A DNA stretch of 12,688 nt from Nitrospirota bacterium (GTDB taxonomy: Bacteria; Nitrospirota; Thermodesulfovibrionia; Thermodesulfovibrionales; Dissulfurispiraceae). How positions within the stretch are numbered: position 1 is the stretch's first letter; each line of letters starts with the position of its first letter. Location of the stretch: positions 1-12,688 of the forward strand of contig JBFMCP010000058.1 of NCBI GenBank assembly GCA_040754455.1, given 5' to 3'. This document shows positions 1,651-12,688 of the stretch, piece by piece. The notes beneath the pieces are model-generated. The model ran no database searches and was not told the origin of the DNA. It saw nothing but the letters and a program-made list of their open reading frames with translations. The position numbers were made by a program, and so were the translations under genes.

Positions 1651-1676
1651 TCTTTTGCTTGTTACGGGAAGACTCT

Positions 1677-2384
1677 ATGAACCTTATCATCCTTTTCGAA
1701 ACAGATTTCATTGACACTAACAGGGTACGGCTGGGAGGGCGTCGTTTCAGGCATGTCCTGGAAGTACATCGCGCCCGGGCAGGTGATGAGCTTACGGTCG
1801 GATTATTGAACGGCGGAATAGGTGCGGGGAGAATAACATTCCTCGATGAAGGTCGCCTTGAAATGGAGGTGTCCCTTGATCGTGAGCCCCCTCTACCTCT
1901 CCCGGTGACACTTGTACTGGCACTCCCCCGGCCCAAGGTGCTGAAAAGGGTGCTCATCGCCGCAAGCTCGATGGGGGTGAAACGAATCTATCTAATCAAT
2001 GCCTTTCGGGTCGAAAAGAGTTTCTGGAAAAGCCCGGTGTTGTACAGCGAGAGTATCAATGAGCAGCTGGTCCTCGGGCTCGAACAGGCACGTGATACGC
2101 TGTTGCCGGACGTCGTGCTTAAGCCGTTATTCAAGCCCTTTGTTGAGGATGAATTGCCCGGGATCATGGAGGGCACGCTTCGGCTTGTAGCGCATCCACA
2201 CGCTGCCGAACCTTGCCCGTGCGCAGTTGCTCGCCCGGTAACCCTTGCGGTGGGGCCCGAAGGCGGCTTTATTCCGTATGAGATTGAAAGATTAAAAGAG
2301 TGCGGGTTTAGACCGGTCTACCTGGGAGAGCGTATTCTCCGTACCGAAACAGCAGTGCCTGCACTCCTGGCAAAACTGTTCTGA
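1677..2384 (+). CDS. rsmE: 16S rRNA (uracil(1498)-N3)-methyltransferase RsmE
   Basis: RHVLEVHR, LVLALPRPKVLKR, LGLEQARDT, and SPOUT motifs AVGPEGGF and LGERILRTETAV. ATG 1677 preferred over TTG 1659. Confidence 0.93.
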   Translation: MNLIILFETDFIDTNRVRLGGRRFRHVLEVHRARAGDELTVGLLNGGIGAGRITFLDEGRLEMEVSLDREPPLPLPVTLVLALPRPKVLKRVLIAASSMGVKRIYLINAFRVEKSFWKSPVLYSESINEQLVLGLEQARDTLLPDVVLKPLFKPFVEDELPGIMEGTLRLVAHPHAAEPCPCAVARPVTLAVGPEGGFIPYEIERLKECGFRPVYLGERILRTETAVPALLAKLF

Positions 2385-2387
2385 CCT

Positions 2388-2660
2388 CTATGTCCCTTCC
2401 TCAGGTACTCCCTCCAGGAGCGCACCTATGCCTTTCAAGGCATTTATCTCATCGTCGGTAAAGCCGATGGCATTTTTCAGTTCCTCCCAGCTGGTGAATG
2501 AGCCGTTTTTATCCCTGTAGTCGATGATCCTCTCTGCCCGTGCCGCACCGATAAAGCCGATGGAGGCCAGCGTTTCAATGTCACTGAGGTTTATGTTTAT
2601 CCCTTCGGTTAAAGCCTCGGGCATTCTCCCGTCTACTCCCTTTAGCTCGGATCCTTGCAT
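2388..2660 (-). CDS. ComEA-family helix-hairpin-helix DNA-binding protein, 90 aa, no membrane anchor
   Basis: ININLSDIETLASIGFIGAARAERIIDYRDKNGSFTSWEEL matches the HHH_3/ComEA pattern (ININtAsxeeLxxlpGIGxxxAxxIixYRxxnGxFxsxeeL). SD AAGGAGG lies 5 nt before ATG 2660. Confidence 0.85.
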   Translation of the reverse strand: MQGSELKGVDGRMPEALTEGININLSDIETLASIGFIGAARAERIIDYRDKNGSFTSWEELKNAIGFTDDEINALKGIGALLEGVPEEGT

Positions 2661-2711
2661 GATATCCTCCTTCTGGAGCGCAACTGCGGTACGCATCCCC
2701 TCTTTTCTTCC

Positions 2712-2740
2712 AGTTTAACCGCAATCCCACATGCCTTCAA
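2712..2740 (-). promoter_or_regulatory. Possible internal sigma70 promoter for the HhH gene
   Basis: Minus strand TTGAAG (2740-2735), 17-nt spacer, TAAACT (2717-2712), in the gap between the SbcC-like stop and the HhH start. Confidence 0.35.
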
Positions 2741-2759
2741 CGATAGGGGAGTGCAATCG

Positions 2760-5186
2760 TTACCCGGCCTGCGGCGTACGGCCGAAGGGGTTCTCATGAG
2801 TCCCTGAATGCACATCCTTGCCGGCGAGCTCATCCATGGAGAGCACCTCATCAGCCAGTGCGACGACCTCGGGCGTATGGGAGATGAAGAACTCCCGTTC
2901 GTAGCCGCCGAGCTCCAAAACCCGCCGCTTTATGTGGATGAAGTCCTTCTTCTTCTCAGCATCGAGACCGCCGTCCTCCTCATCCGTGAAGAGGGTGCCA
3001 TAGGGGATGCCGCTTCTCCGCGCATTGAAGATGCATAAGGCATTCTTCACCGCAGCTTCGATGAGAATCTTCTCGCCGCCGGACATTGACCTTAGCGACT
3101 TCTGCTCGTTCCGTTCCGCATCAAAGACCACGATGTCGAAAATCTCCTTTGTTCCATTGCCTTTAGCCCTGTCCCCCTGCGTATCAATGCGCAACGAGAA
3201 CCTGCCGCCGAAGCAGGTATGAATGAGATCATTCGCGATCCCTGCTACGCTGGGGCCTGCATCGTCGATTTCGAGCGCAATCAGTCCGTCGTTGCCGAGC
3301 GCTTTTTCGAGAAAGGCCCACTCGGTAATATCTTTGCTCAGTATCGTGATCTGCTCGTTAACGGCCGCCAGGCGCCCTGCTGCTGCAGCTATCTGCCTGA
3401 GCTCCTCTTTGACCCGGCCTCTTTTTTCGAAGAGCCGCATCTGTTCATTCCGTACATCGGCAGTTGCCTTTGAGACGAGGGCATTGCGGTGCCGTGCCTT
3501 CTGCAGCGCTTCTTCGAGCCCCCCGGCATCGCTCATCGAATCAAGCTCTTTTCTGATATCATCCCTTTCCCGCTCAACAAAGGACAGTTCTCTGCGGAAT
3601 TCTTCTACGGTCCTATTCCCCTCCTCAATCAGTTCCCTGCGCTCCTGCTCGAGGAGGGGAAGCGCTCTCTCGGCCAGTTCTGCCTCAGGGAGCATTCTCA
3701 TCTTTTCACGAATGGCGACAAGTTTTCTTTCGAGTGCCATCAGCGATATTTTCACATGCTCCTTTGCAGCGAGGCAGCGCTTTACCTCGGCTTCGAGCTC
3801 CTGCTTTCGGACACTTTCTGCTTCAAGCGCCCTGATCTGCTCCTCGATGCGCTTCTCTTCGGCCTCTTTTTTGTCCAGCATGCTGAGGCGTTTCCGGAGT
3901 GAAGGCAGCGCCCTTCGCTCTTCTACAGCGGCTTTAACGAACGTGCATTCCGCAGCAGCAGCCGTCGTACCGCAGGGTAGAGCTCCGAGCTTCTCAGCAG
4001 CCTCTTCCGCCCGGCGGATATTCTGCTCCACTATTTCCTTTGCATGGCTCCGGTTAAGACGGAGGGTAGAGAGCTCTTTGGCGAGCTCCTCCATCCTTGT
4101 CTCAGTCTGTGCGGCTTTGGTGAGGAGCGCAGAGCATGAGACATAATGCGCATCGAGCTCCGCCTGTTTTTCTTTGAGGCTTTGAAAGGTCTGAGCAAGG
4201 GCCTCCTCGTCTTTTGCAGCGCTTCGCAGCGAGGCGACGGACCCGGCACGCTCTTTAGCCTCTTTCAATTTTGCGGTGACGGCCCGGTGTCTGGCATTGT
4301 AGAGCTCTCTCTTCTGCCGGAGCTGCGTATCGAGCTCCTTTGCCCTCGCCTCTTTCTCCGCAAGGCTCTTCAGCAGCAGTTCTCTCTTCTTCTCGTGATC
4401 ACGATGAAGGGTGATATGTACTTCAAGAACTTTGATCCTCTCATTGAGACAGGTCATCTCTTCCTCTAAGGCCCTGAGAGAGGTTTCCGTTTCTTCGAGT
4501 TTCCTCTCGATCTCCGCAAGACCGGCCTCCTTCTCCGGTGCGGCAGCGATGATCTCATTCAGATGCTGCTGCTCCTGGCGGAGCTCTTTGAGCGTACCAG
4601 AGAGTGCATCTTTCTGTCCCTTGGCGTGCTCGGCTTTTCTCTTGAGGTCTTCCGCATCGAGAAGCTCGGTGAATATCTCCTTCATCTCTCCCTTGGTGTA
4701 GCCGCTCAGTTCACGCGCCCTTTGGCGGCGGAATATGTAGGTAAAGAACCCGCGGGGGCTGCCGAGGAGCTCATGGACGGCGCGGTCGTAATCATCGAGC
4801 CTCCCGTCCCTCGTATCGCCGTATACCATCCATTCCTCTCCGTCCTTGAGAAACAGATATGCCTCCTGGCTCTTTCTTTGTGCATCGATACGCACCACGC
4901 TTTTGTACGTGCGGTCTCCGACAAGGAATTCCAGCTCTTTGCAGGCATCGCGGCCGTAGGTTTCATTGTAGAAGCTGAATGAGCCTTCGGAGTAGTCTCC
5001 TGACCGGTACGGCATGATCCGGTAGGGATGAAGGTTATCGAGCAGTGTTGTCTTACCACTCCCGATGGGACCGGTGATCGCCACCAAACCTTTCGACAGA
5101 TGAGAAAGGTCGATCTTCAGCTCATCCACGCCGCAGGCGGACCTGATTCCCTTGAACCCTTTCAAACGAATTTTTAGCGGAATCAT
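2760..5186 (-). CDS. SbcC/Rad50-like SMC-family ATPase, 808 aa
   Basis: N-terminal Walker A GPIGSGKTT, long coiled coil, central LPC-X8-C, ABC signature MSGGE, Walker B/D-loop LFTDEEDGGLD, H-loop FFISHT. Starts 15 nt after the SbcD-like stop, with GGAG SD. Confidence 0.93.
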   Translation of the reverse strand: MIPLKIRLKGFKGIRSACGVDELKIDLSHLSKGLVAITGPIGSGKTTLLDNLHPYRIMPYRSGDYSEGSFSFYNETYGRDACKELEFLVGDRTYKSVVRIDAQRKSQEAYLFLKDGEEWMVYGDTRDGRLDDYDRAVHELLGSPRGFFTYIFRRQRARELSGYTKGEMKEIFTELLDAEDLKRKAEHAKGQKDALSGTLKELRQEQQHLNEIIAAAPEKEAGLAEIERKLEETETSLRALEEEMTCLNERIKVLEVHITLHRDHEKKRELLLKSLAEKEARAKELDTQLRQKRELYNARHRAVTAKLKEAKERAGSVASLRSAAKDEEALAQTFQSLKEKQAELDAHYVSCSALLTKAAQTETRMEELAKELSTLRLNRSHAKEIVEQNIRRAEEAAEKLGALPCGTTAAAAECTFVKAAVEERRALPSLRKRLSMLDKKEAEEKRIEEQIRALEAESVRKQELEAEVKRCLAAKEHVKISLMALERKLVAIREKMRMLPEAELAERALPLLEQERRELIEEGNRTVEEFRRELSFVERERDDIRKELDSMSDAGGLEEALQKARHRNALVSKATADVRNEQMRLFEKRGRVKEELRQIAAAAGRLAAVNEQITILSKDITEWAFLEKALGNDGLIALEIDDAGPSVAGIANDLIHTCFGGRFSLRIDTQGDRAKGNGTKEIFDIVVFDAERNEQKSLRSMSGGEKILIEAAVKNALCIFNARRSGIPYGTLFTDEEDGGLDAEKKKDFIHIKRRVLELGGYEREFFISHTPEVVALADEVLSMDELAGKDVHSGTHENPFGRTPQAG

Positions 5187-5201
5187 AATGTCTCCATTTC
5201 T

Positions 5202-6920
5202 CTATTTACACTTACACTGAGCAGGCCCTCTCATTTCATCTTCTTCAAGCACCGTCAGCTTCGAAAGTATCCCCTCGGAAAGAGAGAGCCCATTGATCTC
5301 GGCATACTTCCTCAGTTTCTCCTCGAGGGAGCGTATCTGCGAGATGCCGGCTGCGCGCACCCGTTGCTGTGGAATTACCGACCGCTCGAACAGTACCTCG
5401 ACAGCTCCCTTATCCCTGAACGCACGCTCGATCGCTCGTTCGTCGACGGTCGCGAGTTCCTCTTGCCTGACCTTGTATTTGATGCGCACCGATGCTCCTG
5501 AAGTGATCTCAGGGATTCTGTGCAGAAGTGAGAGGTCCGGCTTTTCATTGAACTCGAATGTGAGGCGCGGTCTCGTGGGAATGATGATGAACCGTGACAG
5601 GAGTCCATCGGGCGAGAACTCGTGCACCCAGAAGCCCTTGTCCTCCTCTTCGCCGTAATTGAGCCGCGCGATCGAGCCGGAGTAGAAGACATTGTCCCGG
5701 TATTGCATCTTGTGCACATGGCCGAGGAGCACAAGATCCGCTCCCGATTGCTGCAGATCCTCGGTCCCGAGATCGATCGTCCGGCCTGTCGCCTGCTGGC
5801 CGGTGCTCATAACCGAGCCTTTTACCATCAGATGTCCTGCAAGGATGACCGGGATGCCCGCAGTCCGTGCCGCTGCCGAGAGATCATTCCAGAGCGTGAA
5901 TGTGCTTCTGAGGAGGTCGAACGGCTCTTTGTTCCCTTTCTCGAGAGAATGTTGCGCGCGCGAGACAAGCTCGGCCTTGCTTACCGGCGGGATGGCATAG
6001 ATGAGTGCATCGAGGGTGTCGATATCTTCAATGCCGTCGAACGTGCCCTCACGGAGGCCGATGCATCCGATGCGGTCCATGACGCGGACCGCATGTCGGG
6101 CTCCAATGTGGGATAAGACCTCGACGGTGCGGCCGTCGTGGTCGGAGGTGCCCTGGAGTACGAGCACCGGAGCGGTATTCGCGAGCGTCTTTATAAACGC
6201 AACCGCTTTCCGGAATGCGGGGGTATCATAATACTGCCGCTCATCGAGCAGGTCGCCTGCTGAGATAATGAGGTGAGGCCGCATGTGCTTCGCCGCTTTG
6301 ACAATAAACGCCGCGCTCTTTTTGATCTCCTCAAGGTCCTTGTCCCTGAAATGCTGGTCCGCAACATGGAGGACCCTGAGCTTCCGCGCGCCGCCTTTAT
6401 AGGAGAGGGTACGCACGACGAGGCCTTCGATGCCCGAAGGAAAGGAGCTCGTGCTGTATCCCATTGAGATGATCAGTCCCTCTGCCTGCGGCTTCACCTC
6501 GTCAGGTAGGTCGTGGAAGTGTTCGATCAGAATATCCACCTTATCCTGGGTATTCTCTATATCCTTCATGAAGGCGCTCCAGAAGGAGACCGCCTCCCTG
6601 GCATTCCCCACAGGAGGACGGGAGAATTCCTTCACGAGTCCTGACCACGAGAGAGTGCGGCGGCGCGCCTTGAGCCGCTCAAAGCCCGCTTCTCCCCCGA
6701 TTGCCTTATAGACCCTGTAGACCTGCGACAGGAAATCGGGGGGCACAGGGCAGCCCTCCTTTGCAAGGGCAATGGCAAGGCCCGGGAGTTTCTCCTCGCC
6801 GTTTCCGTGATATCGTTCGTGGAGGATCCTGCCGAGTTGGATATTCGTAGAGGCTGTTTCCATGATACTCTCGGACCGCTCCCGCAAGAGTTCCTTGAGA
6901 CTGTCCAAAAAGTCAGACAT
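5202..6920 (-). CDS. SbcD/Mre11-like metallophosphoesterase nuclease with a ~180-aa N-terminal extension, 572 aa
   Basis: Calcineurin-like motifs HVADQH, AGDLLD, QGTSDHD, LAGHL, LGHVH and YSGS..YGEEEDKG. SD AAGGAG precedes ATG 6920. Directly upstream of the SbcC-like gene. Confidence 0.9.
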   Translation of the reverse strand: MSDFLDSLKELLRERSESIMETASTNIQLGRILHERYHGNGEEKLPGLAIALAKEGCPVPPDFLSQVYRVYKAIGGEAGFERLKARRRTLSWSGLVKEFSRPPVGNAREAVSFWSAFMKDIENTQDKVDILIEHFHDLPDEVKPQAEGLIISMGYSTSSFPSGIEGLVVRTLSYKGGARKLRVLHVADQHFRDKDLEEIKKSAAFIVKAAKHMRPHLIISAGDLLDERQYYDTPAFRKAVAFIKTLANTAPVLVLQGTSDHDGRTVEVLSHIGARHAVRVMDRIGCIGLREGTFDGIEDIDTLDALIYAIPPVSKAELVSRAQHSLEKGNKEPFDLLRSTFTLWNDLSAAARTAGIPVILAGHLMVKGSVMSTGQQATGRTIDLGTEDLQQSGADLVLLGHVHKMQYRDNVFYSGSIARLNYGEEEDKGFWVHEFSPDGLLSRFIIIPTRPRLTFEFNEKPDLSLLHRIPEITSGASVRIKYKVRQEELATVDERAIERAFRDKGAVEVLFERSVIPQQRVRAAGISQIRSLEEKLRKYAEINGLSLSEGILSKLTVLEEDEMRGPAQCKCK

Positions 6921-6935
6921 AAAATCTCCTTCCAA

Positions 6936-7023
6936 GGCCCTCAGCGATCAGCTTTCAACGGTCAGCAAGGAAATGTGCGGCTATGTATCATGGTCTTTTG
7001 CTGATTGCTGATCGCTGAGGGCC
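6936..7023. repeat. Intergenic 17-bp perfect inverted repeat with inner 7-bp stem
   Basis: GGCCCTCAGCGATCAGC (6936-6952) / GCTGATCGCTGAGGGCC (7007-7023); inner TCAGCAA (6962-6968) / TTGCTGA (6998-7004). Confidence 0.9.
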
Positions 7024-7029
7024 GACAAC

Positions 7030-7884
7030 TTATTTCTGCTTCTGCAGGTGATCGATCAGGGCGCTCGCCTGTCCCTTCGACAGCTCTTTGAGTGACTCAA
7101 AGGGCTCGATGTCGAGGTCGAGGCTGGGGTTGAAGAATTTGTTCACCTCTTCGAGCATTCCGTCCTCTTCGTACCCCTTGCTCCGCAGGATTGCGTAGAT
7201 TGCTTTGATCTGCGCTTCTGTTGCCGGCGCATGGGGGTTCTTGATCACGCCGAAGCTGCCCCTTGTCTGGGGCTGCCGGGGCGGTGTCTTCGCAGTGCTT
7301 CCCTCAGACGCCTTGCCGCGCTCGAAGAGCTCTTCGGGCATGTCTTCGATGTCCTGCGTGAAGATGTCCGATGCAGCGGTCGAGGTGAGCACCGCATCGA
7401 CGAGCGCTCTCTTCTTGGCCATCTTGAGAATGGTATTGGCGAGATCGTAAGGATTGTTTCTTACCTGCCTGAGCTGTATGCCGCGCATATATTTGATACG
7501 GCGGTTTGTTTCAGACATCGCCTCCCACTCGTCGTCGCTCGCCGCCATCCTCCATTTGTACTTGTCCTCTTCACTCGAGCACTCGCCCAAACCTGCTCCG
7601 AAGAATATCCCGCTCTTGGTCGTAAGCCTGACCTTTACCCGATAGCGGATAACGTCATCGTGCGAAAGATCGACGACCTCGGGATCAGCCGAAAGCCTGA
7701 AGGTCGACATGATCTTCTCAGCACCGGGTTTGAACAGGGTCGGTTTGTCGCCCGCGCCGGGAATCTTTCCGTAATGCTGGCCCTCCTGCATGACGGTGCG
7801 CATCACTTCCTGGATCAGGTTGATCTGCTCTCTTATATCGTGTACGGTCAAAGGTTTCTCCTCATATACGGCTACTTCTGCCAT
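7030..7884 (-). CDS. Putative phage-type single-strand DNA annealing protein (Rad52/ERF/RecT-like) with small C-terminal helical domain, 284 aa
   Basis: HYGKIPG..KPTLFKPGAEK, YRVKVRL..GAGLGECSSEE and DLANTILKMAKKRALVDAVL..SDIFTQDIED resemble phage-associated conserved proteins with a Rad52-like layout. A Pro/Gln linker precedes ATEAQI...LSKGQASALIDHL. Strong SD AAGGAGG. The CDS is confident; the function is inferred. Confidence 0.7.
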   Translation of the reverse strand: MAEVAVYEEKPLTVHDIREQINLIQEVMRTVMQEGQHYGKIPGAGDKPTLFKPGAEKIMSTFRLSADPEVVDLSHDDVIRYRVKVRLTTKSGIFFGAGLGECSSEEDKYKWRMAASDDEWEAMSETNRRIKYMRGIQLRQVRNNPYDLANTILKMAKKRALVDAVLTSTAASDIFTQDIEDMPEELFERGKASEGSTAKTPPRQPQTRGSFGVIKNPHAPATEAQIKAIYAILRSKGYEEDGMLEEVNKFFNPSLDLDIEPFESLKELSKGQASALIDHLQKQK

Positions 7885-8124
7885 TATGTCCCTCCTTGAA
7901 TGGGTTTCGCTGTTTTTTCAGCGCACAAAGCCGCTCGCAATGCCATAGGGCATGCGATAGTTCCATCTCGGGCTGTGCGCAACCTGAGCGTGCAGTATGG
8001 CCGATATCGGCGGCATGTACGGATACATCCGTGAGTATTGCTTTTTTCTGCTGCTGCGGCCGTCGGAAGAGAGGGAGAAGCACAACATAACTGCAGGAAA
8101 ATCAAGCGGAATACTGCATCGTCT

Positions 8125-8154
8125 ATTATGACCTATTTGTCTCTGAAAACGCAA
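8125..8154 (-). promoter_or_regulatory. Putative sigma70 promoter of the SSAP-sbcD-sbcC cluster
   Basis: Minus strand TTGCGT (8154-8149), 18-nt spacer, CATAAT (8130-8125). Would give a leader of about 230 nt before ATG 7884. Confidence 0.4.
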
Positions 8155-8415
8155 GTAGAAGGTGTATTCCACGGCACTCTTCACAGTTGTATAAAGAGGT
8201 CATTGTAGCACACGCATTGTTCATTATCACCCGCTTTCGAGCGAGTAAACTTCATTGGGTATCCAGACGTCGTCCCCGTGAAAATGGAAAACCAGAACCT
8301 GTTAAGAATACCGGATTCCCGTTTCCACCGGAATGTGTGCGACCATGGCTTATACATTTTGTTACGTGCTCGTTGTTTGTAAATGTCTCTGCCTCTCAGT
8401 GTCCCTGTGGTTACA

Positions 8416-8424
8416 TGGTATAAT
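8416..8424 (+). promoter_or_regulatory. Extended -10 promoter of ppnP
   Basis: TGGTATAAT (TGn + TATAAT) at 8416-8424, followed by SD AGGAGG (8447-8452) and ATG 8464. Confidence 0.6.
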
Positions 8425-8463
8425 GGACAGTTGTACTACTTTCATCAGGAGGTTTTAGCAAGT

Positions 8464-8778
8464 ATGTCAGAGTTTAAAGGAGTGACTGTTGCTAAGAAAG
8501 CGAATATTTATTTCGATGGTAACGTGACGAGCAGGACGGTTATTTTCAATGACGGCTCGAAAAAGACGCTCGGTATAATGCTTCCGGGCGAATATGAGTT
8601 CGACACAGGAGACAAGGAGATAATGGAGATACTCTCCGGTGACCTCGATGTGCTGCTGCCGGATGAGACTGCTTGGAAGACGATAAAGGGCGGCGAATCG
8701 TTCGAGGTACCGGCACATGCGACGTTCAAACTCAAAGTGAAGAGCCTCACCGACTATTGCTGCTCGTTTATTAAATAG
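8464..8778 (+). CDS. ppnP: Pyrimidine/purine nucleoside phosphorylase (DUF1255/YaiE cupin)
   Basis: [44 protein letters not shown] and DYCCSF are the family signature. Confidence 0.93.
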
Positions 8779-8916
8779 AATGAGTCAAGAAGAACGAACC
8801 TCGGAGATACCGTCGGGTTGACGCAGACTAGAAGCATGAACTGCCTGTGTTAAGATGATTTTGGTGAGCAAAATCCGGCTTTCGGGATTCAGTGTCTCAG
8901 AGGTTGGCGGATAATT

Positions 8917-10437
8917 ATGATTCTCATCTATCCCCCTGTTGCAAAGCCTTGTGAGCCGCCGGCAGGCGTTGCGAAACTTTCGGGGGCACTCAGCCGCTGT
9001 GGAATAAAACACAAGGTCATCGATGCGAACATCGAGGGGCTCTTGTCGCTCCTGCAGCAACCACAGGTGCGGTTCGATACCTGGACGAATCGGGCCTCTC
9101 GAAACCTTGAGAAAAACCTTGCTGCACTGCGAGACCGGACAATATACAGCAACGTTGCGCGCTATAAACGCGCGGTCATGGATATCAACCGGGTTCTTGA
9201 GAAGTCCACACGGGACAGCAGTACAGCAGTGAGCCTTGCGAATTACCGGGATAACAACCTTTCACCCTTGCGGAGCAGGGATCTCCTGCGTTCCGCCGAG
9301 TATCCGGAGCGCAGTCCTTTTTATACCTACTTCGAAAGGCGCCTTTCGAGTGTTATTGAGCGGGAACAGCCGTCAACCGTTGGCATTTCGATCAATTTCC
9401 TGAGCCAGGCATTATGTGCCTTCGCGATGATCGGCTTTCTGAAAAAGAGGTATCCGGACATAACGATTGTCCTCGGCGGTGGGTTGGTGACCTCATGGGT
9501 CAGGGGCCCGAAGTGGCATAATCACTTTAGAGGATTGGTTGACCGGTTCGTTGCCGGGCCGGGTGAATATGAGTTGCCTGCTCTCCTCGGCAGCAAGGAT
9601 ATGGGTAAAGAACATGTTGCCCCTCGGTATGATCAATTGCCGCTTGCCGAGTATGTTGCACCAGGTCTGATCCTTCCCTACAGCGGATCGAGCGGCTGCT
9701 ACTGGAACAAATGTTCGTTCTGCCCTGAAAGAGCAGAGGGCAATCCTTATATTCCCGTAGCAGACGATATGGCTGCCGAAGACCTGAGGATGCTTGCACG
9801 GCTGACACGACCGGCGCTTATCCATATACTCGACAACTCGATGCGTACGGGGCTTATGAGAGCATTGATGCATAATCCCTCCGGTGTACCGTGGTACGGC
9901 TTTGCGAGAATCGGCAGAGAGCTCACCGATGATGATTTCTGTATGGCCTTGAAGCGTTCGGGATGCGTTATGCTCAAACTCGGATTGGAATCGGGAGACC
10001 AGGGAGTGCTTGATCATATGCACAAGGGTATTGATCTTGAAACCGCATCGCGGGCGCTCAGGGCCCTGAAGAGGGCAGGTATCGCCACCTATGTGTATCT
10101 CCTTTTCGGGACCCCTCCGGAGACAGAAGCGTCGGCGAGAATGACGCTCGAATTCACCGCCCGGCATAGCGACGCAATCAGCTTCCTGAATCTTGCGATC
10201 TTCAATATGCCCCTCTATGGACCGGAAGCGGAGCAGTTCGGCACCGGGAGTTTTTACGAAGGCGACCTCTCGCTCTACACCGATTTCAGACACCCGAAAG
10301 GGTGGAATCGAAAGCAGGTCCGGCTGTTTCTTGAAAACGATTTCAAGAGACATCCTGCCATTGCTCCGATCACGCAACAGGAACCCCCGTTCTTCACCTC
10401 CAACCATGCACCGCTTTTTTCAATGGAACAGAGATAA
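8917..10437 (+). CDS. Radical SAM protein with N-terminal B12-binding-like domain, 506 aa
   Basis: CxxxCxxC motif SSGCYWNKCSFC, LGLESG and YVYLLFGTPPET. N-terminal LIYPP, VGISINFLSQ and IVLGGG are typical of B12-binding radical SAM enzymes. Substrate unknown. Confidence 0.9.
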   Translation: MILIYPPVAKPCEPPAGVAKLSGALSRCGIKHKVIDANIEGLLSLLQQPQVRFDTWTNRASRNLEKNLAALRDRTIYSNVARYKRAVMDINRVLEKSTRDSSTAVSLANYRDNNLSPLRSRDLLRSAEYPERSPFYTYFERRLSSVIEREQPSTVGISINFLSQALCAFAMIGFLKKRYPDITIVLGGGLVTSWVRGPKWHNHFRGLVDRFVAGPGEYELPALLGSKDMGKEHVAPRYDQLPLAEYVAPGLILPYSGSSGCYWNKCSFCPERAEGNPYIPVADDMAAEDLRMLARLTRPALIHILDNSMRTGLMRALMHNPSGVPWYGFARIGRELTDDDFCMALKRSGCVMLKLGLESGDQGVLDHMHKGIDLETASRALRALKRAGIATYVYLLFGTPPETEASARMTLEFTARHSDAISFLNLAIFNMPLYGPEAEQFGTGSFYEGDLSLYTDFRHPKGWNRKQVRLFLENDFKRHPAIAPITQQEPPFFTSNHAPLFSMEQR

Positions 10438-10483
10438 TGGTGTGCGCCCTGTCGGACTTCTTGATGCGACTGCTCATAGCACT

Positions 10484-10511
10484 TTGTTCCGCTCAGGAAT
10501 AGAAGTATAAT
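10484..10511 (+). promoter_or_regulatory. Putative sigma70 promoter of the DUF3243 gene
   Basis: TTGTTC (10484-10489), 16-nt spacer, TATAAT (10506-10511). Confidence 0.4.
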
Positions 10512-10647
10512 TTAATTAACTCCGCACTCCATCTCATCCTCACGTGATTATATGCGAGCGCAAAAGGCGTATGTTCCTCCGGATACCCTGGTTTAGACAA
10601 GGAAAGGGGAGATGTACCTGTACACCTTTGTAGTCAAGGAGGGAACC

Positions 10648-10929
10648 ATGGAGAAAGTAATAGAAAAAATGAAATGTGTCGATTTGCTGGACGTGACAAA
10701 GGATTGGGATACCTTCAGAAAGACCCTGCACGAGGGGATAGCACAGGCGCGCCAGCTCGGTATGTCCGACGAGGAGATTCAGGAACTGGCAACGACCGTC
10801 GGCGACTTCCTCAACGAGAAGGTCTGCCCTGCAACAAAAGAGGAAGCGCTTCTGAAAGAGATGTGGGATGTTGCTTCGACAGACGAAAGAAGGTGCATGG
10901 CCACCGTCCTTTTCAAGATGATGAAGTAA
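10648..10929 (+). CDS. DUF3243 (YmfJ-like) family protein, 93 aa
   Basis: WDTFRKTL..ARQLGMSDEEI..ATTVGDFL..VCP..EEALLKEMWDVA..ERR.MA.VLFKM follows the DUF3243 pattern. SD AAGGAGG precedes ATG 10648. Confidence 0.82.
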   Translation: MEKVIEKMKCVDLLDVTKDWDTFRKTLHEGIAQARQLGMSDEEIQELATTVGDFLNEKVCPATKEEALLKEMWDVASTDERRCMATVLFKMMK

Positions 10930-10987
10930 TGTGAGTGCTCCCCTTTCTTTTCTAAACATTCGGGAATTACGTGTTGGGACAGTGGAT

Positions 10988-11034
10988 GGCAACGGCAGGA
11001 AGGGGCGGAGGGAGTGCCCCTTTCTGCCGTTGCC
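10988..11034 (+). repeat. 19-bp intergenic hairpin
   Basis: GGCAACGGCAGGAAGGGGC (10988-11006) / GCCCCTTTCTGCCGTTGCC (11016-11034): 18 Watson-Crick pairs plus one G-U on the + strand, 9-nt loop, no U-tract. Confidence 0.85.
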
Positions 11035-11088
11035 TGCTGCGGGAATTCATAATGGAGCACGAAGGGAGGAATCTGATATTATAGAAGA

Positions 11089-11694
11089 ATGGGTGAACGA
11101 CAACTTTATCAACCGCTTACCAAAGAGGACAGGATAACGGTACTCCTCTACCGTATCGGCATCGGGCTCTCGACGCTTATTATCACTTTCGCCGCTTATC
11201 TTTCATTCGGCCCCTCACCCTTTCACTATGCCCTGTCGCTCAATAGCGTGGCGAATATATTGCTTATCCTGCTCTCTCTGTCGGTAGGCTGCAGCGTTCT
11301 TTTCATACATCTCTATGTGAGCAGATTCCACAGGGCACTGAAGAAGCTCTACTATGTTTCAATAGCTGCGCTCCTGCTCCTCTTTATTTTAGGAAGAGGG
11401 GATGCCTTCGGCATCATTATCGGTGAGCCCTACGGTCCTCTCCTGCTCATTCCGCTCTCGGGATGTCTGGGGTTTATTACCGCAAAAGAGGCCTTTTGCT
11501 TCAGACTGACCGAAGGGTACCTCCTTGCGCTCATTATGCCGTTGTATCTTCTGGCGCTGTCAATGGGGGGGATGACCACAAAAGGAGCATCGTACGGCCT
11601 TCTGTTTATAGCGGCAATGCTCGTCTTCTTTACTCTCAGAAAAGTATTCATGCCGATCCATTACGATATCGGCGATAAATCCGCATACGTCTAG
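11089..11694 (+). CDS. DUF2301 family integral membrane protein
   Basis: EDRITVLLYR, FIHLY..FHRALK, AKEAFCFR..E and LRK...P...DIGDKSAY match DUF2301 motifs; several hydrophobic helices. Confidence 0.82.
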   Translation: MGERQLYQPLTKEDRITVLLYRIGIGLSTLIITFAAYLSFGPSPFHYALSLNSVANILLILLSLSVGCSVLFIHLYVSRFHRALKKLYYVSIAALLLLFILGRGDAFGIIIGEPYGPLLLIPLSGCLGFITAKEAFCFRLTEGYLLALIMPLYLLALSMGGMTTKGASYGLLFIAAMLVFFTLRKVFMPIHYDIGDKSAYV

Positions 11695-11740: not shown

Positions 11741-12440
11741 TTAGGACAATACCTTCTCGATAAGACCCGCGACATCGGTGATGCAGAGGTCCTCGGCAAT
11801 TTCATTCCCCTTAACTCCTGATCCGCTGATAATAAGCGGCAGATAGTCCTGTTCGGTGAGGGGCGGGTAGCCGTGGGAGCCTTTTATCAGGCCGGTATCC
11901 TGGGGTACTTTGAAGGTGCCCGGCTCGATAAAGAGTTCGAGGGGATCATACCCCGGCTTCCGGTGAATATCCACGTGGGGAGCGAAGTGCGGCTCTTTTG
12001 CCCGGTCCTCCCACCAGTAGTAGGAGAACCGGGAGGCCCTTGAGCTTACGGCGATGAATGTCCCTGCACGAGGATGGTCGATGTGGTAGTCTGCCTTACT
12101 GCGGGCATCGAGGAGCATATCGATCCCCTCCACTTTCTCGACGGCGCTTCGTACCTCGTGCTCATGTCCTGCTTTTACTATAGATATGGGCAACCTGGTG
12201 ATCCACCATGGCAAAGGCAGGGCTAAGCTCGAAATCGAGGTATTCCCTTCCGCCGATCATACGCACGGCCCCAGAAATAAAAGAGATTGAAATCGCCGAT
12301 CGCTGAACAGATATCTTCATAGAGGCCGGCGGGCTTGGAGTAGCACCATTGGACCAGGCCCTGCACGGTGTAGAGCGGCTTTGGTGTAATGACCGAACCC
12401 ATGAGTGATTGTTCATTGCAGCTCGACGGCGGGTGACGGA
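11741..12440 (-). pseudogene. Decayed alkaline phosphatase/nucleotide pyrophosphatase family (EboF-like) gene
   Basis: Family motifs are split over three frames: VITPKP..CYSKPAGLY..GDFNLFYFWG; AVRMIGGREYLDFELSPAFAMVDHQVAHIY; and VKAG..HPRAG..YYWW..VDIHRKPGYDPLELF..IKGSHG. Frameshift near 12179, large deletion near 12270, 5' end cut by an IS. The 5' limit is approximate. Confidence 0.82.
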
Positions 12441-12446
12441 AAGGGG

Positions 12447-12688
12447 GGTATAAACTGTTAAACTTTTTATACCCAAATATACTATAATATACCCATGAAG
12501 TTAAGTGTATGGGCAAAACAAAAAGGAATAGCGTATAAAACTGCGTGGCGGATGTGGGAAATAAGAATTCTTAAAGACCCTACAGTTACTACCATCATAG
12601 TAGAACATAGAGATAGACTTATGCGATTTGGGATAGAGTATGTAGAAGCGGTCCTGGCTGCTCAAGGCAGAAGACTTATTGTTATAGA
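12447..12688 (+). mobile_element. IS607-family element, left end (continues past the window)
   Basis: Abrupt switch to AT-rich sequence after the G run at 12443-12448 (IS607 elements recombine at GG). Phased TATAC repeats are followed by a TnpA-like ORF. Confidence 0.8.
12495..12688 (+). pseudogene. tnpA: IS607-family serine transposase TnpA, internally deleted in frame, 3' end outside the window (absent from the ORF track)
   Basis: Translates as MKLSVWAKQKGIAYKTAWRMW|EIRILKDPTVTTIIVEHRDRLMRFGIEYVEAVLAAQGRRLIVI. The MerR-like HTH start is joined directly to the IVVEHRDRLxRFG segment; the YARVSS and GSG motifs are missing. Confidence 0.88.

Follow-up and report, generated by a model that had tools for sequence, protein, structure and literature searches.

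Gene organization of the locus

The stretch of DNA that was analysed, referred to here as the window, comprises 12,688 nucleotides, and its minus strand carries four co-directional genes, coding for a candidate single-strand annealing protein (SSAP), an SbcD-like protein, an SbcC-like protein and a helix-hairpin-helix (HhH) protein, bounded by rsmE and ppnP:

1659-2384, plus strand: rsmE-type RNA methyltransferase gene (Pfam PF04452, E 9e-34)
2696 or 2660..2388, minus strand: HhH protein gene, 102 or 90 aa
5186..2760, minus strand: SbcC-like ORF, 808 aa
6920..5202, minus strand: SbcD-like ORF, 572 aa
7884..7030, minus strand: SSAP candidate, 284 aa
8383 or 8464-8778, plus strand: ppnP (Pfam PF06865, E 2e-40)

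The original prediction of a co-directional quartet with good SD sites, gaps of about 110, 15 and 100 nt, rsmE/ppnP flanks and no gene typical of mobile genetic elements (MGEs) agrees with the measurements, as SD-like sites precede all four start codons, the gaps amount to 109, 15 and 99 nt (the last shortening to 63 nt with the HhH start at 2696), and a Pfam scan of 21 window ORFs gave no match to integrase, capsid, replication or conjugation families. Within the window no phage or plasmid genes and no tRNA genes were found, the two cluster borders share no repeat of 9 nt or longer, and the coding strand has no terminator-like site from 8500 to 2200. The outer flanks encode, according to Pfam, a zinc-type dehydrogenase, a B12/radical-SAM enzyme, DUF3243 and DUF2301.

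The first gene and the Rad52 superfamily

Since no Pfam or NCBIfam family was matched by the product of the first gene, and hence the SSAP label was confirmed by no family library, its identification required the fold together with gene context. It does match the profile phrog_10048 (E 5e-47). An AlphaFold (AF2) model with a pLDDT of 87 retrieved human RAD52 from the PDB by Foldseek (E 7e-4, probability 1.0), with Mgm101 and the 80alpha Sak SSAP among the other PDB matches, and 66 viral models of BFVD at E <= 1e-3, whose named members include ERF, Rad52/59/22, SAK3 and RecT. The model runs from a helix through short strands, a second helix, three long strands, a hairpin and a long helix to a C-terminal three-helix bundle, an order in agreement with the published five-element Rad52 SSAP fold followed by a C-terminal interaction domain (PMC9870868). 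Two domains are predicted from the model:

7884..7360, minus strand: SSAP annealing domain, approximately residues 1-175
7227..7033, minus strand: SSAP C-terminal three-helix bundle, approximately residues 220-284

The small C-terminal domain resembles that of Red-beta only weakly (E 0.1). By its modelled fold, and because its relatives adjoin exonuclease and SSB genes, the first gene product is a predicted Rad52-superfamily annealase, belonging to a large family that is mostly viral or MGE-borne and with viral proteins as its nearest relatives.

Divergent SbcD- and SbcC-type proteins

The SbcD-like ORF opens at TTG 6935, and the ATG at 6920 is preceded by the SD sequence GGAAGGAGA. Its product matches PF00149 (E 5e-9) and phrog_100 (E 8e-26), aligns to Thermotoga Mre11/SbcD (E 2e-10), and reaches TIGR00619 with E 6e-10 at a score of 39.5, below the cut-off of 77.65, and the curated model NF008206 with E 2e-6. 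Residues D188, H190, G222, D223, G257, T258, H261, H363, H401 and H403 are invariant in 17/17 sequences and D262 is kept in at least 90% of those aligned. Relatives of this protein are common on plasmids (78 records), with E values of 1e-30 to 1e-41 for plasmid and phage relatives. The catalytic domain is preceded by a clade-specific helical extension, a candidate coupling or DNA-binding adaptor:

6920..6456, minus strand: extra all-helical SbcD N-domain, residues 1-155 (model pLDDT 73)
minus strand, about residues 160-185: disordered SbcD linker

The third gene product matches phrog_77 (E 3e-43), and SMC_N and AAA_23 only below their cut-offs; its score against TIGR00618 is 28.7 with a cut-off of 478.5, while its family profile finds E. 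coli SbcC with E 3e-10 and archaeal Rad50 with E 8e-10. Invariant in 21/21 sequences are the Walker A residues G39, G42, K45 and T47, as well as Q155, S702-G703-G704, D735-E736, C405 and C414, the two cysteines belonging to the putative apex of the coiled coil:

3977..3945, minus strand: hook-like apex P404-C405...C414 of SbcC, of a non-canonical PC...C type

None of the 37 close SbcC relatives (E <= 1e-22, P0285-P0321) matches PF04423. From these motifs and family matches the second gene product is identified as a divergent SbcD/Mre11-type metallophosphoesterase, predicted to be a nuclease with intact catalytic motifs, and the third as a divergent SbcC/Rad50-type ABC ATPase with a coiled coil and likewise intact motifs. 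They have the phosphoesterase and ABC ATPase motifs and the Cys-apex coiled coil in common with housekeeping SbcCD (E. coli, PDB 6s6v; Thermotoga Mre11/Rad50), but differ from it in scoring far under the curated TIGR00619 and TIGR00618 cut-offs, in the 155-aa SbcD N-domain, in a motif III that reads GTxxHD in place of the usual GNHD/E, in the PCG-x(n)-C instead of CxxC hook, and in an SbcC chain of 808 aa compared with 1048 aa in E. coli.

Conservation of the gene order in relatives

Three Nitrospirota MAG loci related to the window (L004, L005 and L006) have the same order SSAP-SbcD-SbcC, there in a MlaA / NUDIX / RecD2 ... Crp context, unlike the rsmE / ppnP surroundings in the window; as these three share a single context, the triad is documented in two independent genomic contexts only. 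The SSAP-SbcD gap in L004 and L006 is about 20-26 nt, and SbcC of L004 is cut off by the contig end. Two further contigs, with lengths of 14205 and 6923, probably carry all three genes, as suggested by the recurrence of these lengths in the match lists of the three proteins. In the wider SSAP family, a lambda-Exo/RecE-type exonuclease (a YqaJ, PD-(D/E)XK/RecE-like or PHROG 'exonuclease' ORF, co-directional and at most three ORFs away) accompanies the annealase gene in 47 of 80 genome loci, SSB in 19/80 and SbcCD in 3/80, the last being L004-L006. Two of three phage records examined have the homologue directly 5' of 'exonuclease' and SSB genes, whereas in the third it is preceded by a Sipho_Gp157 / Mu Gam-like gene. 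No SbcD relatives were found at E <= 1e-3 in the genera to which the 15 phage records with this SSAP family belong.

The fourth gene behaves differently. Of its two possible starts, ATG 2660 has the SD sequence GGAGG 6 nt upstream and ATG 2696 has no SD at a proper distance, and the 90-aa product from 2660 is predicted to be a small cytoplasmic, ComEA-like HhH DNA-binding protein (PF12836, E 3e-13; TIGR01259, E 6e-11, below cut-off). In L005 and L006, the two relatives with sequence downstream of SbcC (2/2), no such gene was found after SbcC and a Crp-type regulator gene occupies its place, so it probably falls outside the conserved unit and is most likely an unrelated neighbour. Taken together, the original prediction stands for an annealase as the first gene (with a Rad52-type fold found by Foldseek and exonuclease and SSB neighbours in relatives), for SbcD/Mre11 and SbcC/Rad50 as the second and third, whose family matches and invariant motifs agree with it, and for the triad as a unit co-conserved in a second chromosomal context; membership of the HhH protein in the system, which it had also proposed, is not upheld.

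The same loci bear on the question of whether the three genes adjoin by chance, SbcCD being the ordinary end and hairpin nuclease of the lineage and the SSAP a separately acting domesticated phage gene. L007 retains an SSAP of 77% identity and the conserved upstream block amid housekeeping neighbours and has no SbcCD, hence the SSAP can stand alone and the pairing is not obligatory; in the window SSAP and SbcD are 109 nt apart with a stable hairpin between them, and RecD2, a housekeeping-type repair gene, lies near the triad in L004-L006, pointing to a general tendency of repair genes to cluster. Against this, the gene order is kept in two contexts with short gaps in L004 and L006, SbcD sits in the slot that is held by an exonuclease in most of the 80 relatives, its matches to phrog_100 and to relatives from plasmids and phages are stronger than those to TIGR00619 and NF008206, and it bears the clade-specific N-domain. 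Chance adjacency is thus regarded as rather unlikely.

Selection and chromosomal residency

All three genes of the triad are under purifying selection, with dN/dS of 0.05-0.08 for SSAP, 0.16-0.20 for SbcD and 0.155-0.175 for SbcC, from pairs that include unsaturated ones (dS 0.55-0.75), and the RSCU codon usage of the cluster correlates with that of the flanks (r 0.81; 0.60 between the two flank halves). The original prediction had considered that homologous loci might always lie inside prophages with this copy under relaxed selection, whereas the triad loci are located outside prophages and under constraint. A decaying prophage or integrative-element remnant without selected function would fit the chiefly viral or MGE-borne nature of the SSAP family and the fact that plasmids and Leptospira phage LE1 carry divergent SbcCD relatives, but it is disfavoured by dN/dS and by flank-like codon usage, by the integrity of the three ORFs, both in the window and in those relatives whose contigs span them in full, with invariant catalytic motifs, and by the failure to find other MGE genes, tRNA or border repeats; it is considered very improbable.

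Pairing of an SMC-like ATPase with a nuclease is common among defence systems, and an anti-phage or anti-plasmid activity, in which the ATPase and nuclease would attack invading ends or hairpins with the SSAP as an accessory, would also be in line with the frequency of SbcD relatives on plasmids and with weak PADLOC matches of SbcC (mad3, E 4e-7; LmuB, E 8e-4). However, no single stretch of these matches passes alone and they reflect generic P-loop and coiled-coil similarity, no PADLOC family matches SSAP or SbcD, the flanks in both contexts are of housekeeping type rather than a defence island, and an annealase is not known to be a component of such systems. A defence role is accordingly held to be improbable.

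Upstream region and intergenic hairpin

Three features precede SSAP or separate it from SbcD:

8125..8154, minus strand: promoter-like block, TTGCGT (8154..8149), 18-nt spacer, CATAAT (8130..8125)
7885..8124, minus strand: SSAP 5' leader of approximately 240 nt, with conserved blocks in 4-5 loci
6936..7023, no strand assigned: long hairpin in the SSAP-SbcD gap, a perfect 17-bp inverted repeat with 0 mismatches between its two arms

Across the window and L004, L005, L006 and L007, the sequence CTACTTGCG...CATAATA of this putative promoter shows little or no variation; a consensus promoter scan missed it, since its -35 hexamer matches at 3/6 positions only. Within the leader, for which Rfam gave no match, CCCTCTCTTCC (8075..8065) is complementary to the SSAP SD sequence AAGGAGGG (7897..7890), and RNAalifold pairs this CU-rich block with the SD in 4/4 sequences without covariation. 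The hairpin (RNA fold -42.9 kcal/mol, z -5.1) is specific to the window genome, being absent from L004 and L006 and replaced by a different insert in L005; no T-run lies 3' of it, and such a strong structure in the 109-nt gap could uncouple the expression of SSAP and SbcD.

A putative recombination module and its relation to known systems

The reading we favour, to which we give somewhat better than an even chance, is that of a domesticated Red-like recombination or repair module, in which SbcCD takes the position of the 5'-3' exonuclease of the relatives and which is chromosomal and vertically maintained in a Nitrospirota (Thermodesulfovibrionia-like) clade. The adjacency of the genes suggests co-operation of the three proteins; the direction of hand-over and the independence from RecA are likewise inferred. 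An SbcC dimer linked via its Cys-Cys hook would bind DNA ends with SbcD, and the complex, judged by the activity of the SbcCD/Mre11-Rad50 family, would open or trim blocked, hairpin-capped or broken ends in an ATP-dependent manner. The single-stranded DNA exposed, possibly with the aid of a helicase, would be coated by host SSB, and the SSAP could be recruited through its Red-beta-like C-terminal bundle, oligomerise on ssDNA through the Rad52-type N-domain and anneal it to its complement, which may be another processed end or a gap on the lagging strand, such that DNA would be repaired or recombined without RecA strand invasion. As a nuclease, bacterial SbcCD trims ends and acts on hairpins; it is not known to resect 5'-3' processively, and thus would not be an exact equivalent of lambda Exo.

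No description of an SSAP-SbcCD pairing was found in the literature. As in lambda Red Exo/Beta, Rac RecE/RecT and their phage and ICE kin, an SSAP with a C-terminal bundle adjoins a co-directional DNA-end nuclease, and relatives of the same SSAP family adjoin YqaJ or RecE-like exonucleases and SSB. In contrast to these systems, the nuclease here is a predicted two-subunit, ATP-dependent complex of Mre11/Rad50 type instead of a PD-(D/E)XK 5'-3' exonuclease, the window has no Gam-like gene, and the cluster is chromosomal, flanked by housekeeping genes and conserved within a bacterial clade. In phage T4, gp46 and gp47, homologues of Rad50 and Mre11, serve a recombination pathway with UvsX, UvsY and gp32, the likeness being an Mre11/Rad50-type nuclease dedicated to a recombination pathway from the same genome segment, and PHROGs 77 and 100, matched by the cluster genes, group phage proteins of SbcC- and SbcD-like type; the T4 partner is, however, a RecA-type strand-exchange protein and not an annealase.

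Burkholderiales megaplasmids and Leptospira phage LE1 (gp76-gp75-gp74) encode SbcD-like proteins 26-32% identical to that of the window (E down to 2e-41). Downstream of each lies an SMC/SbcC-like ATPase gene and upstream a co-directional gene of a different type, and these 'X - SbcD-like - SbcC-like' clusters are MGE-borne, unlike that of the window. Their upstream protein, Gp3-like (PF18897) or unassigned, is unrelated to the SSAP of the window, with hhalign probabilities no higher than about 1%.

The combination of a phage-type annealase with a divergent Mre11/Rad50-like nuclease, with a function that we infer, recalls eukaryotic break repair, since Mre11-Rad50-Xrs2/Nbs1 and Rad52 present the same pair of folds, an end processor and an annealase. 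At the cluster no counterpart of Xrs2/Nbs1 or Sae2/CtIP was identified, and in eukaryotes there is no linkage between the Mre11/Rad50 and Rad52 genes, and Rad52 has a second role in mediating the loading of Rad51. The likeness to eukaryotic MRX and Rad52 is a functional one, the nearest relatives of the SSAP being viral.

Organization and genomic setting of the gene cluster

The cluster located between rsmE and ppnP is composed of four genes on the minus strand, which encode a candidate single-strand annealing protein (SSAP), SbcD-like and SbcC-like proteins and an HhH protein, with the following positions and translation starts.

7884..7030, minus strand: SSAP, 284 aa; ATG 7884, SD AAGGAGGG
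6935/6920..5202, minus strand: SbcD-like protein, 577 or 572 aa; properly placed SD GGAAGGAGA at ATG 6920
5186..2760, minus strand: SbcC-like protein, 808 aa; ATG 5186, SD GGAGA
2696/2660..2388, minus strand: HhH protein, 102 or 90 aa; ATG 2660, SD GGAGG

The four genes are co-directional as originally predicted, with the gaps claimed to be about 110, 15 and 100 nt amounting to 109, 15 and 99 nt when measured from the SD-preceded starts, and the good SD sites that had been claimed are indeed properly placed at ATG 7884, 6920, 5186 and 2660. Pfam searches revealed that the flanks of the cluster consist of housekeeping genes, namely those for a zinc-type dehydrogenase, an rsmE-type methyltransferase (PF04452, E 9e-34), ppnP (PF06865, E 2e-40), a B12/radical-SAM enzyme, DUF3243 and DUF2301. 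Since the Ppnp domain does not start until residue 38 in the longest ppnP ORF, this gene probably starts at ATG 8464. The divergent intergenic region separating SSAP and ppnP genes (7885-8463) is unusually long, about 580 nt, and its GC content drops to 0.45.

None of the 21 ORFs in the window matched Pfam families of integrase, capsid, replication or conjugation genes, in agreement with the claimed lack of a phage context, and no Rfam family reached the gathering score in the window. A mobile-element boundary around the cluster was rejected, since no direct or inverted repeat of at least 9 nt is common to both cluster borders and no tRNA gene is found in the window. The GC content of the cluster is similar to that of its flanks, and codon usage (RSCU) of the cluster correlates with the flanks at r 0.81 as compared to 0.60 between the two flank halves.

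The first gene encodes a predicted Rad52-superfamily annealase

The Rad52 SSAP superfamily is defined (PMC9870868) by an N-terminal annealing domain of ~180 aa with a five-element fold, comprising a three-stranded antiparallel sheet, alpha3 packed across the sheet, alpha2, a beta-hairpin and alpha1. The AlphaFold2 model of the SSAP (mean pLDDT 87, alignment of 66 sequences), a predicted and not a solved structure, contains these five elements in the same order: N-domain helices at residues 14-30, 52-61 and 145-168, short strands after the first helix, three long strands (65-72, 80-88 and 94-103) and a hairpin at 128-142 followed by the long helix 145-168. A three-helix bundle (223-283) forms the C-terminus of the model. 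When this model was compared with the PDB using Foldseek, human RAD52 was the top match (E 7e-4, probability 1.0), and yeast Mgm101 and the Sak SSAP of phage 80alpha were also retrieved, with modest TM-scores of 0.25-0.49; the annealase fold proposed for the first gene is thus borne out at the level of the model. Among predicted viral structures 66 matches were obtained at E <= 1e-3, those with names including ERF-superfamily, Rad52/59/22, SAK3 and 'RecT family', and viral proteins make up 84-88% of the Atlas look-alike clusters.

At the level of sequence, the SSAP belongs to none of the curated SSAP families (Pfam Rad52_Rad22, ERF, RecT, Sak and others). Searches of Pfam, NCBIfam and PDB sequences gave no match at E <= 0.01 except GemA (Pfam E 0.0095), which was disregarded as it reaches 17.3 bits vs a cut-off of 27, and phmmer and family-profile searches against the PDB yielded nothing meaningful. 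The sole family match is phrog_10048 of 'unknown function' (E 5e-47), and hence the SSAP defines a distinct uncurated family inside the Rad52 superfamily. A word-indexed search recovered 6050 proteins at E <= 1e-3, the top 120 being named 'hypothetical protein' throughout, and an exhaustive search 9580 representatives at 50% identity; the family, for which Pfam has no model, could be included in SSAP catalogues and recombineering screens. Conservation lies within residues 1-185, the linker and C-terminal domain beyond them being variable. It is by predicted fold and gene context, and not by sequence, that the first gene can be assigned to the annealases of the Rad52 superfamily.

A divergent SbcD/SbcC pair follows the annealase gene

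The assignment of the next two genes to SbcD/Mre11 and SbcC/Rad50 held up in family matches, in alignments to Mre11, E. coli SbcC and Rad50, and in motifs that are largely intact. The SbcD-like protein matches PF00149 (E 5e-9) and phrog_100 (E 8e-26), aligns to Thermotoga Mre11/SbcD (E 2e-10) and matches TIGR00619 at E 6e-10 with 39.5 bits, under the cut-off of 77.65. Of the five phosphoesterase motifs (DxH, GD, GNH(D/E), H and GHxH), four occur without variation in all 17 sequences, as D188xH190, G222-D223, H363 and H401xH403. Motif III is G257-T258-x-x-H261-D262 and not GNH(D/E), due to the replacement of Asn and the insertion of two residues; D262 is conserved in at least 90% of the 17 family members. 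An extra N-terminal domain occurs in 12 of these 17 members, and in the window protein it covers residues 1-155, is predicted to be all-helical (pLDDT 73) and precedes a disordered linker. Foldseek against the PDB gave no match for this domain at E <= 1e-3 (best 0.46), and an Atlas feature search returned merely unnamed clusters and low-value leads. Complex prediction using SbcD residues 1-160 and the full SSAP gave a score of 0.00, which as a value obtained without controls is neutral on binding.

The SbcC-like protein matches phrog_77 (E 3e-43), and the profile of its family (21 members) detects E. coli SbcC (E 3e-10) and archaeal Rad50 heads (E 8e-10). It contains a split ABC ATPase head and a long coiled coil, with G39, G42, K45 and T47 of the Walker A motif GPIGSGKTT, Q155 of the Q-loop, the S702GG signature and D735E736 of Walker B all invariant in 21 of 21 sequences. 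H770 of the H-loop is kept in the window's clade; most distant relatives have Gln at this position. The CxxC zinc hook (PF04423) is absent from the 21 sequences; among SbcC relatives, PF04423 assignments were precomputed only for distant matches (E >= 1e-8). At the apex, residues 404-414 (window 3977-3945), all 21 sequences retain P404-C405 and C414, with an inter-Cys loop of variable length. This Pro-Cys...Cys apex may be a variant hook, for which a hook-like function is plausible. Both families are small, with 18 SbcD and 48 SbcC proteins at E <= 1e-3 in word-indexed searches of ~8000 scored candidates. Judged from their sequences, the second and third genes form a divergent SbcD/SbcC pair, the motifs of which are intact apart from motif III of SbcD and the CxxC hook of SbcC.

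Function of the cluster as a defence system was also considered, and is improbable in view of the PADLOC searches: SSAP, SbcD and HhH proteins each matched 0 families, and SbcC gave just weak generic matches (mad3, E 4e-7; LmuB, E 8e-4), with no stretch passing a model.

Conserved linkage of three genes in two chromosomal settings

In three related Nitrospirota MAG loci (L004, L005 and L006), the gene order is the same as in the window, with identities to the window proteins of 80% for SSAP, 68-70% for SbcD and 65% for SbcC, and the SSAP-SbcD gap is ~20-26 nt in L004 and L006. SbcD and SbcC genes follow immediately after the SSAP gene in four of the five close-clade loci (the window and L004-L006), L007 being the exception. 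The SSAP is hence found in conserved adjacency to a co-directional DNA-end nuclease in these four loci, and this partner is not a 5'-3' exonuclease of the lambda Exo/RecE/YqaJ type; a calcineurin-like phosphoesterase and an ABC ATPase are present instead. Contigs of equal length (14205; 6923) in the match lists of SSAP, SbcD and SbcC only hint at two more contigs with these three genes. L004-L006 have in common a context of MlaA, NUDIX (opposite strand), RecD2, the three genes and a Crp-type regulator, which shares nothing with the window flanks, and therefore the three genes are held together in two different chromosomal settings.

The proposed four-gene unit stands for SSAP-SbcD-SbcC, which are co-conserved in L004-L006, but not for the HhH gene, which is not kept after SbcC in L005 and L006; homology of both loci to the window stops just past the SbcC stop codon. 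The HhH protein itself matches PF12836 (E 3e-13) and scores 42.3 against TIGR01259 vs a cut-off of 152.35, and the N-terminal membrane anchor or export signal of ComEA was not found, as at most 30 residues precede the domain and no hydrophobic segment is seen.

A RecD2/YrrC-type helicase gene is located upstream of the three genes in L004 (3790-6153), L005 (6944-9667) and L006 (5528-7792). It lies directly upstream of the SSAP gene, ~320 nt off, in L004 and L005. RecD2 was rejected as a part of the module due to an intervening opposite-strand GGDEF gene in L006 and the lack of a remnant in the window (best tblastn E 0.3), and it is probably a mere neighbour.

The dN/dS values are 0.05-0.08 for SSAP, 0.16-0.20 for SbcD and 0.155-0.175 for SbcC and hold in pairs with dS of 0.55-0.75, and all three genes are under purifying selection. 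The predicted retention on the chromosome is consistent with the housekeeping contexts and dN/dS of 0.05-0.20, as opposed to a constant location inside prophages with relaxed selection. By the same measure, that the cluster is the decaying remnant of a mobile element is very improbable, being contradicted by these dN/dS values, by the invariant catalytic and ATPase motifs and by the flank-like codon usage.

In L007, a close relative, a 77% identical SSAP (3292-4149) occurs without SbcCD, its neighbours being pheT, a GntR-type regulator, TauE and a citrate transporter, and it resembles a solitary annealase that has been domesticated. A tree built from 20 SSAPs places the Nitrospirota proteins in one clade (10 rows, support 99/99), which includes L007 and is internally a polytomy; loss or relocation of SbcCD is the simplest reading for L007, on which the tree has no power to decide. 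An explanation by neighbouring genes with independent functions is regarded as unlikely, while deserving some weight; the findings would then comprise a new SSAP family and a divergent SbcCD clade, of value for annotation and otherwise ordinary.

Gene partners within the SSAP family

A genome-contig search seeded with the SSAP alignment gave at least 520 confirmed loci, of which the best 80 were analysed. Plus-strand ORFs of at least 60 aa were taken from both sides of the SSAP gene (two upstream, three downstream), which gave a partner set of 371 ORFs from 82 of 83 loci (80 genome and 3 phage), L076 being left out as its SSAP ORF was not recognised. After clustering by BLASTP, 60 of the 83 chosen representatives were annotated with Pfam and 28 with PHROGs; among the other 23, five were covered by an earlier Pfam scan and the rest were mostly singletons without annotation. 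The counts are lower bounds due to such unannotated representatives and to several loci ending at contig ends.

Table. Genes found beside the SSAP gene in the best 80 loci (at least 520 confirmed)
Co-directional YqaJ, PD-(D/E)XK/RecE-like or PHROG 'exonuclease' ORF: 47 of 80 loci
Co-directional SSB: 19 of 80 loci
Co-directional SbcD and SbcC: 3 of 80 loci (L004, L005, L006)
Neither exonuclease nor SbcCD recognised: 30 of 80 loci

The premise that annealases are normally paired with an exonuclease applies to this family as well, in 47 of these best 80 loci. It follows from the partner counts that SbcCD fills the slot held by a Red/RecE-type exonuclease in most relatives; among the best 80 of at least 520 loci, this is confined to the window's own clade. 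Three of the 15 phage records with an SSAP homologue were opened: in two the homologue is immediately upstream of 'exonuclease' and SSB genes, and in Geobacillus virus E2 it comes after a Sipho_Gp157/'Mu Gam-like' gene. The genera of the 15 SSAP-bearing phage records do not overlap with those of the 416 with an SbcD relative (E <= 1e-3), nor are the genera of five SSAP-bearing plasmids among those named for 78 SbcD-bearing plasmids, two genera being unlisted.

Two further arrangements were observed. In 16 Geobacteraceae/Desulfuromonadales loci (L038, L045, L046, L048, L050-L052, L054, L056, L057, L060, L061, L064-L067), a block of SSB, SSAP, a 69-70-aa ORF, a 324-aa PD-(D/E)XK/RecE-like nuclease and a 78-aa ORF is kept, and a TraH conjugation gene upstream in L056 and L061 places at least some of these copies in conjugative elements. 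In nine Chthoniobacterales/Verrucomicrobiota MAG loci (L053, L055, L062, L069, L071-L073, L079, L080), a GT4 glycosyltransferase gene precedes the SSAP homologue, as does a gene for an uncharacterised 251-aa protein in seven of them, and no recognised exonuclease or SSB is nearby; here the family may occupy a further chromosomal setting outside phages.

SbcD-SbcC clusters on plasmids and in a phage

Beyond the clade, the nearest SbcD relatives are encoded by Leptospira phage LE1 and by Burkholderiales plasmids, the latter with 78 records at 26-32% identity and E down to 2e-41. In each locus opened, a co-directional upstream gene precedes the SbcD-like and SbcC-like genes.

L084, Piscinibacter plasmid, 5807-11147: upstream protein - SbcD-like - SbcC-like
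L085, Burkholderia plasmid, 5430-13139: upstream protein - SbcD-like - SbcC-like
L087, Caballeronia plasmid, 4262-10830: upstream protein - SbcD-like - SbcC-like
L086, Leptospira phage LE1, 3752-8201: upstream protein - SbcD-like - SbcC-like

The upstream gene encodes a 464-474-aa Gp3-like protein (PF18897, 'recombination directionality factor-like') in two of the three opened plasmids, Piscinibacter and Burkholderia, and an uncharacterised protein in LE1. The Piscinibacter and LE1 upstream proteins were rejected as SSAPs at the sequence-profile level (hhalign 0.1% and 1.1%). A tblastn match on the Piscinibacter plasmid that extended into the upstream gene was the basis for the idea of a fused gene; origin of the SbcD N-domain from the C-terminus of the upstream Gp3-like protein was likewise rejected (BLASTP E 0.16, hhalign probability 0.1%). 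Coupling of a DNA-handling protein to a divergent SbcCD may be a wider theme of mobile elements.

A conserved promoter-like block and leader

A promoter-like block, TTGCGT - 18 nt - CATAAT (8154..8125), lies upstream of the SSAP gene and is kept in all five loci, as is a leader of ~240 nt, which is conserved even in L007 without SbcCD.

Window, 8154-7885, minus strand: promoter-like block and leader
L004, 6154-6496: promoter-like block and leader
L005, 9668-10015: promoter-like block and leader
L006, 9660-10015: promoter-like block and leader
L007, 2960-3312: promoter-like block and leader

A CU-rich leader block (8075..8065) is complementary to the SSAP SD (7897..7890), with neither covariation nor an Rfam family, and this complementarity suggests translational control of the SSAP. 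Rfam searches of the leader and the SSAP-SbcD gap returned just chance-level microRNA/snoRNA matches.

Proposed function and relation to known systems

The reading we lean towards, with modest confidence, is that of a domesticated Red-like module, in which the three proteins would co-operate independently of RecA: SbcCD would process DNA ends and the SSAP, probably recruited via SSB by its C-terminal bundle, would anneal the exposed strands. What the analysis establishes are the folds (at the level of models), families, motifs, linkage and selection, and the co-operation, the substrate and RecA independence are inferences. Bacterial SbcCD trims ends and cuts hairpins and does not carry out processive resection, so that the module may depend on a helicase or a further nuclease. 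More tentatively, and with considerable doubt, the Nitrospirota clade could have fixed a bacterial counterpart of eukaryotic Mre11-Rad50 and Rad52, with a phage-derived annealase and a specialised SbcCD synthesized from a conserved leader-controlled promoter and the novel helical SbcD N-domain coupling end processing directly to annealing, dedicated in these anaerobes to RecA-independent repair of breaks or hairpins or to the integration of linear DNA.

If the three proteins co-operate, this would be, as far as the searches made here show, the first bacterial Rad52-fold annealase to be genetically wired to an Mre11/Rad50-type nuclease and not to one of the lambda-Exo/RecE type, and a phage recombination gene would have been domesticated into a host repair pathway. 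It would also offer a compact operon-encoded model for the passing of Mre11-Rad50 products to an annealase, a hand-over that is hard to isolate in eukaryotes. In full-text literature searches, no paper came up in which an SSAP gene is paired with SbcCD, a claim on which the SSAP neighbourhood tables of Iyer, Koonin and Aravind 2002 may bear. RecE-like exonucleases are discussed as SSAP neighbours by Lopes et al. 2010 (PMC2896510), and SbcC, SbcD, Mre11 and gp46 are absent from that text as well as from Bobay et al. 2013 (PMC3784561). In jumbo phages SbcC/SbcD are reported as nearly universal, in passages that make no link to annealases (Iyer et al. 2021, PMC7824862).

Additional features of the window

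The SSAP-SbcD gap (6936-7023) contains a perfect 17-bp inverted repeat with a 54-nt spacer (-42.9 kcal/mol, z -5.1). A role as a conserved regulator was rejected, as the hairpin is absent from L004-L006 and no other copy was detected in the window or among 87 loci. With no T-run behind it, it does not qualify as a classical terminator, and no terminator-like site was found on the coding strand of 2200-8500. The hairpin may represent a small inserted palindromic element or an RNA-processing/stability signal. At 11741-12516 on the minus strand, a 157-aa ORF without Pfam or NCBIfam match is accompanied by two upstream ORFs (104 and 97 aa) that overlap in different frames, which together may correspond to one frameshift-disrupted gene or reflect a sequencing error.
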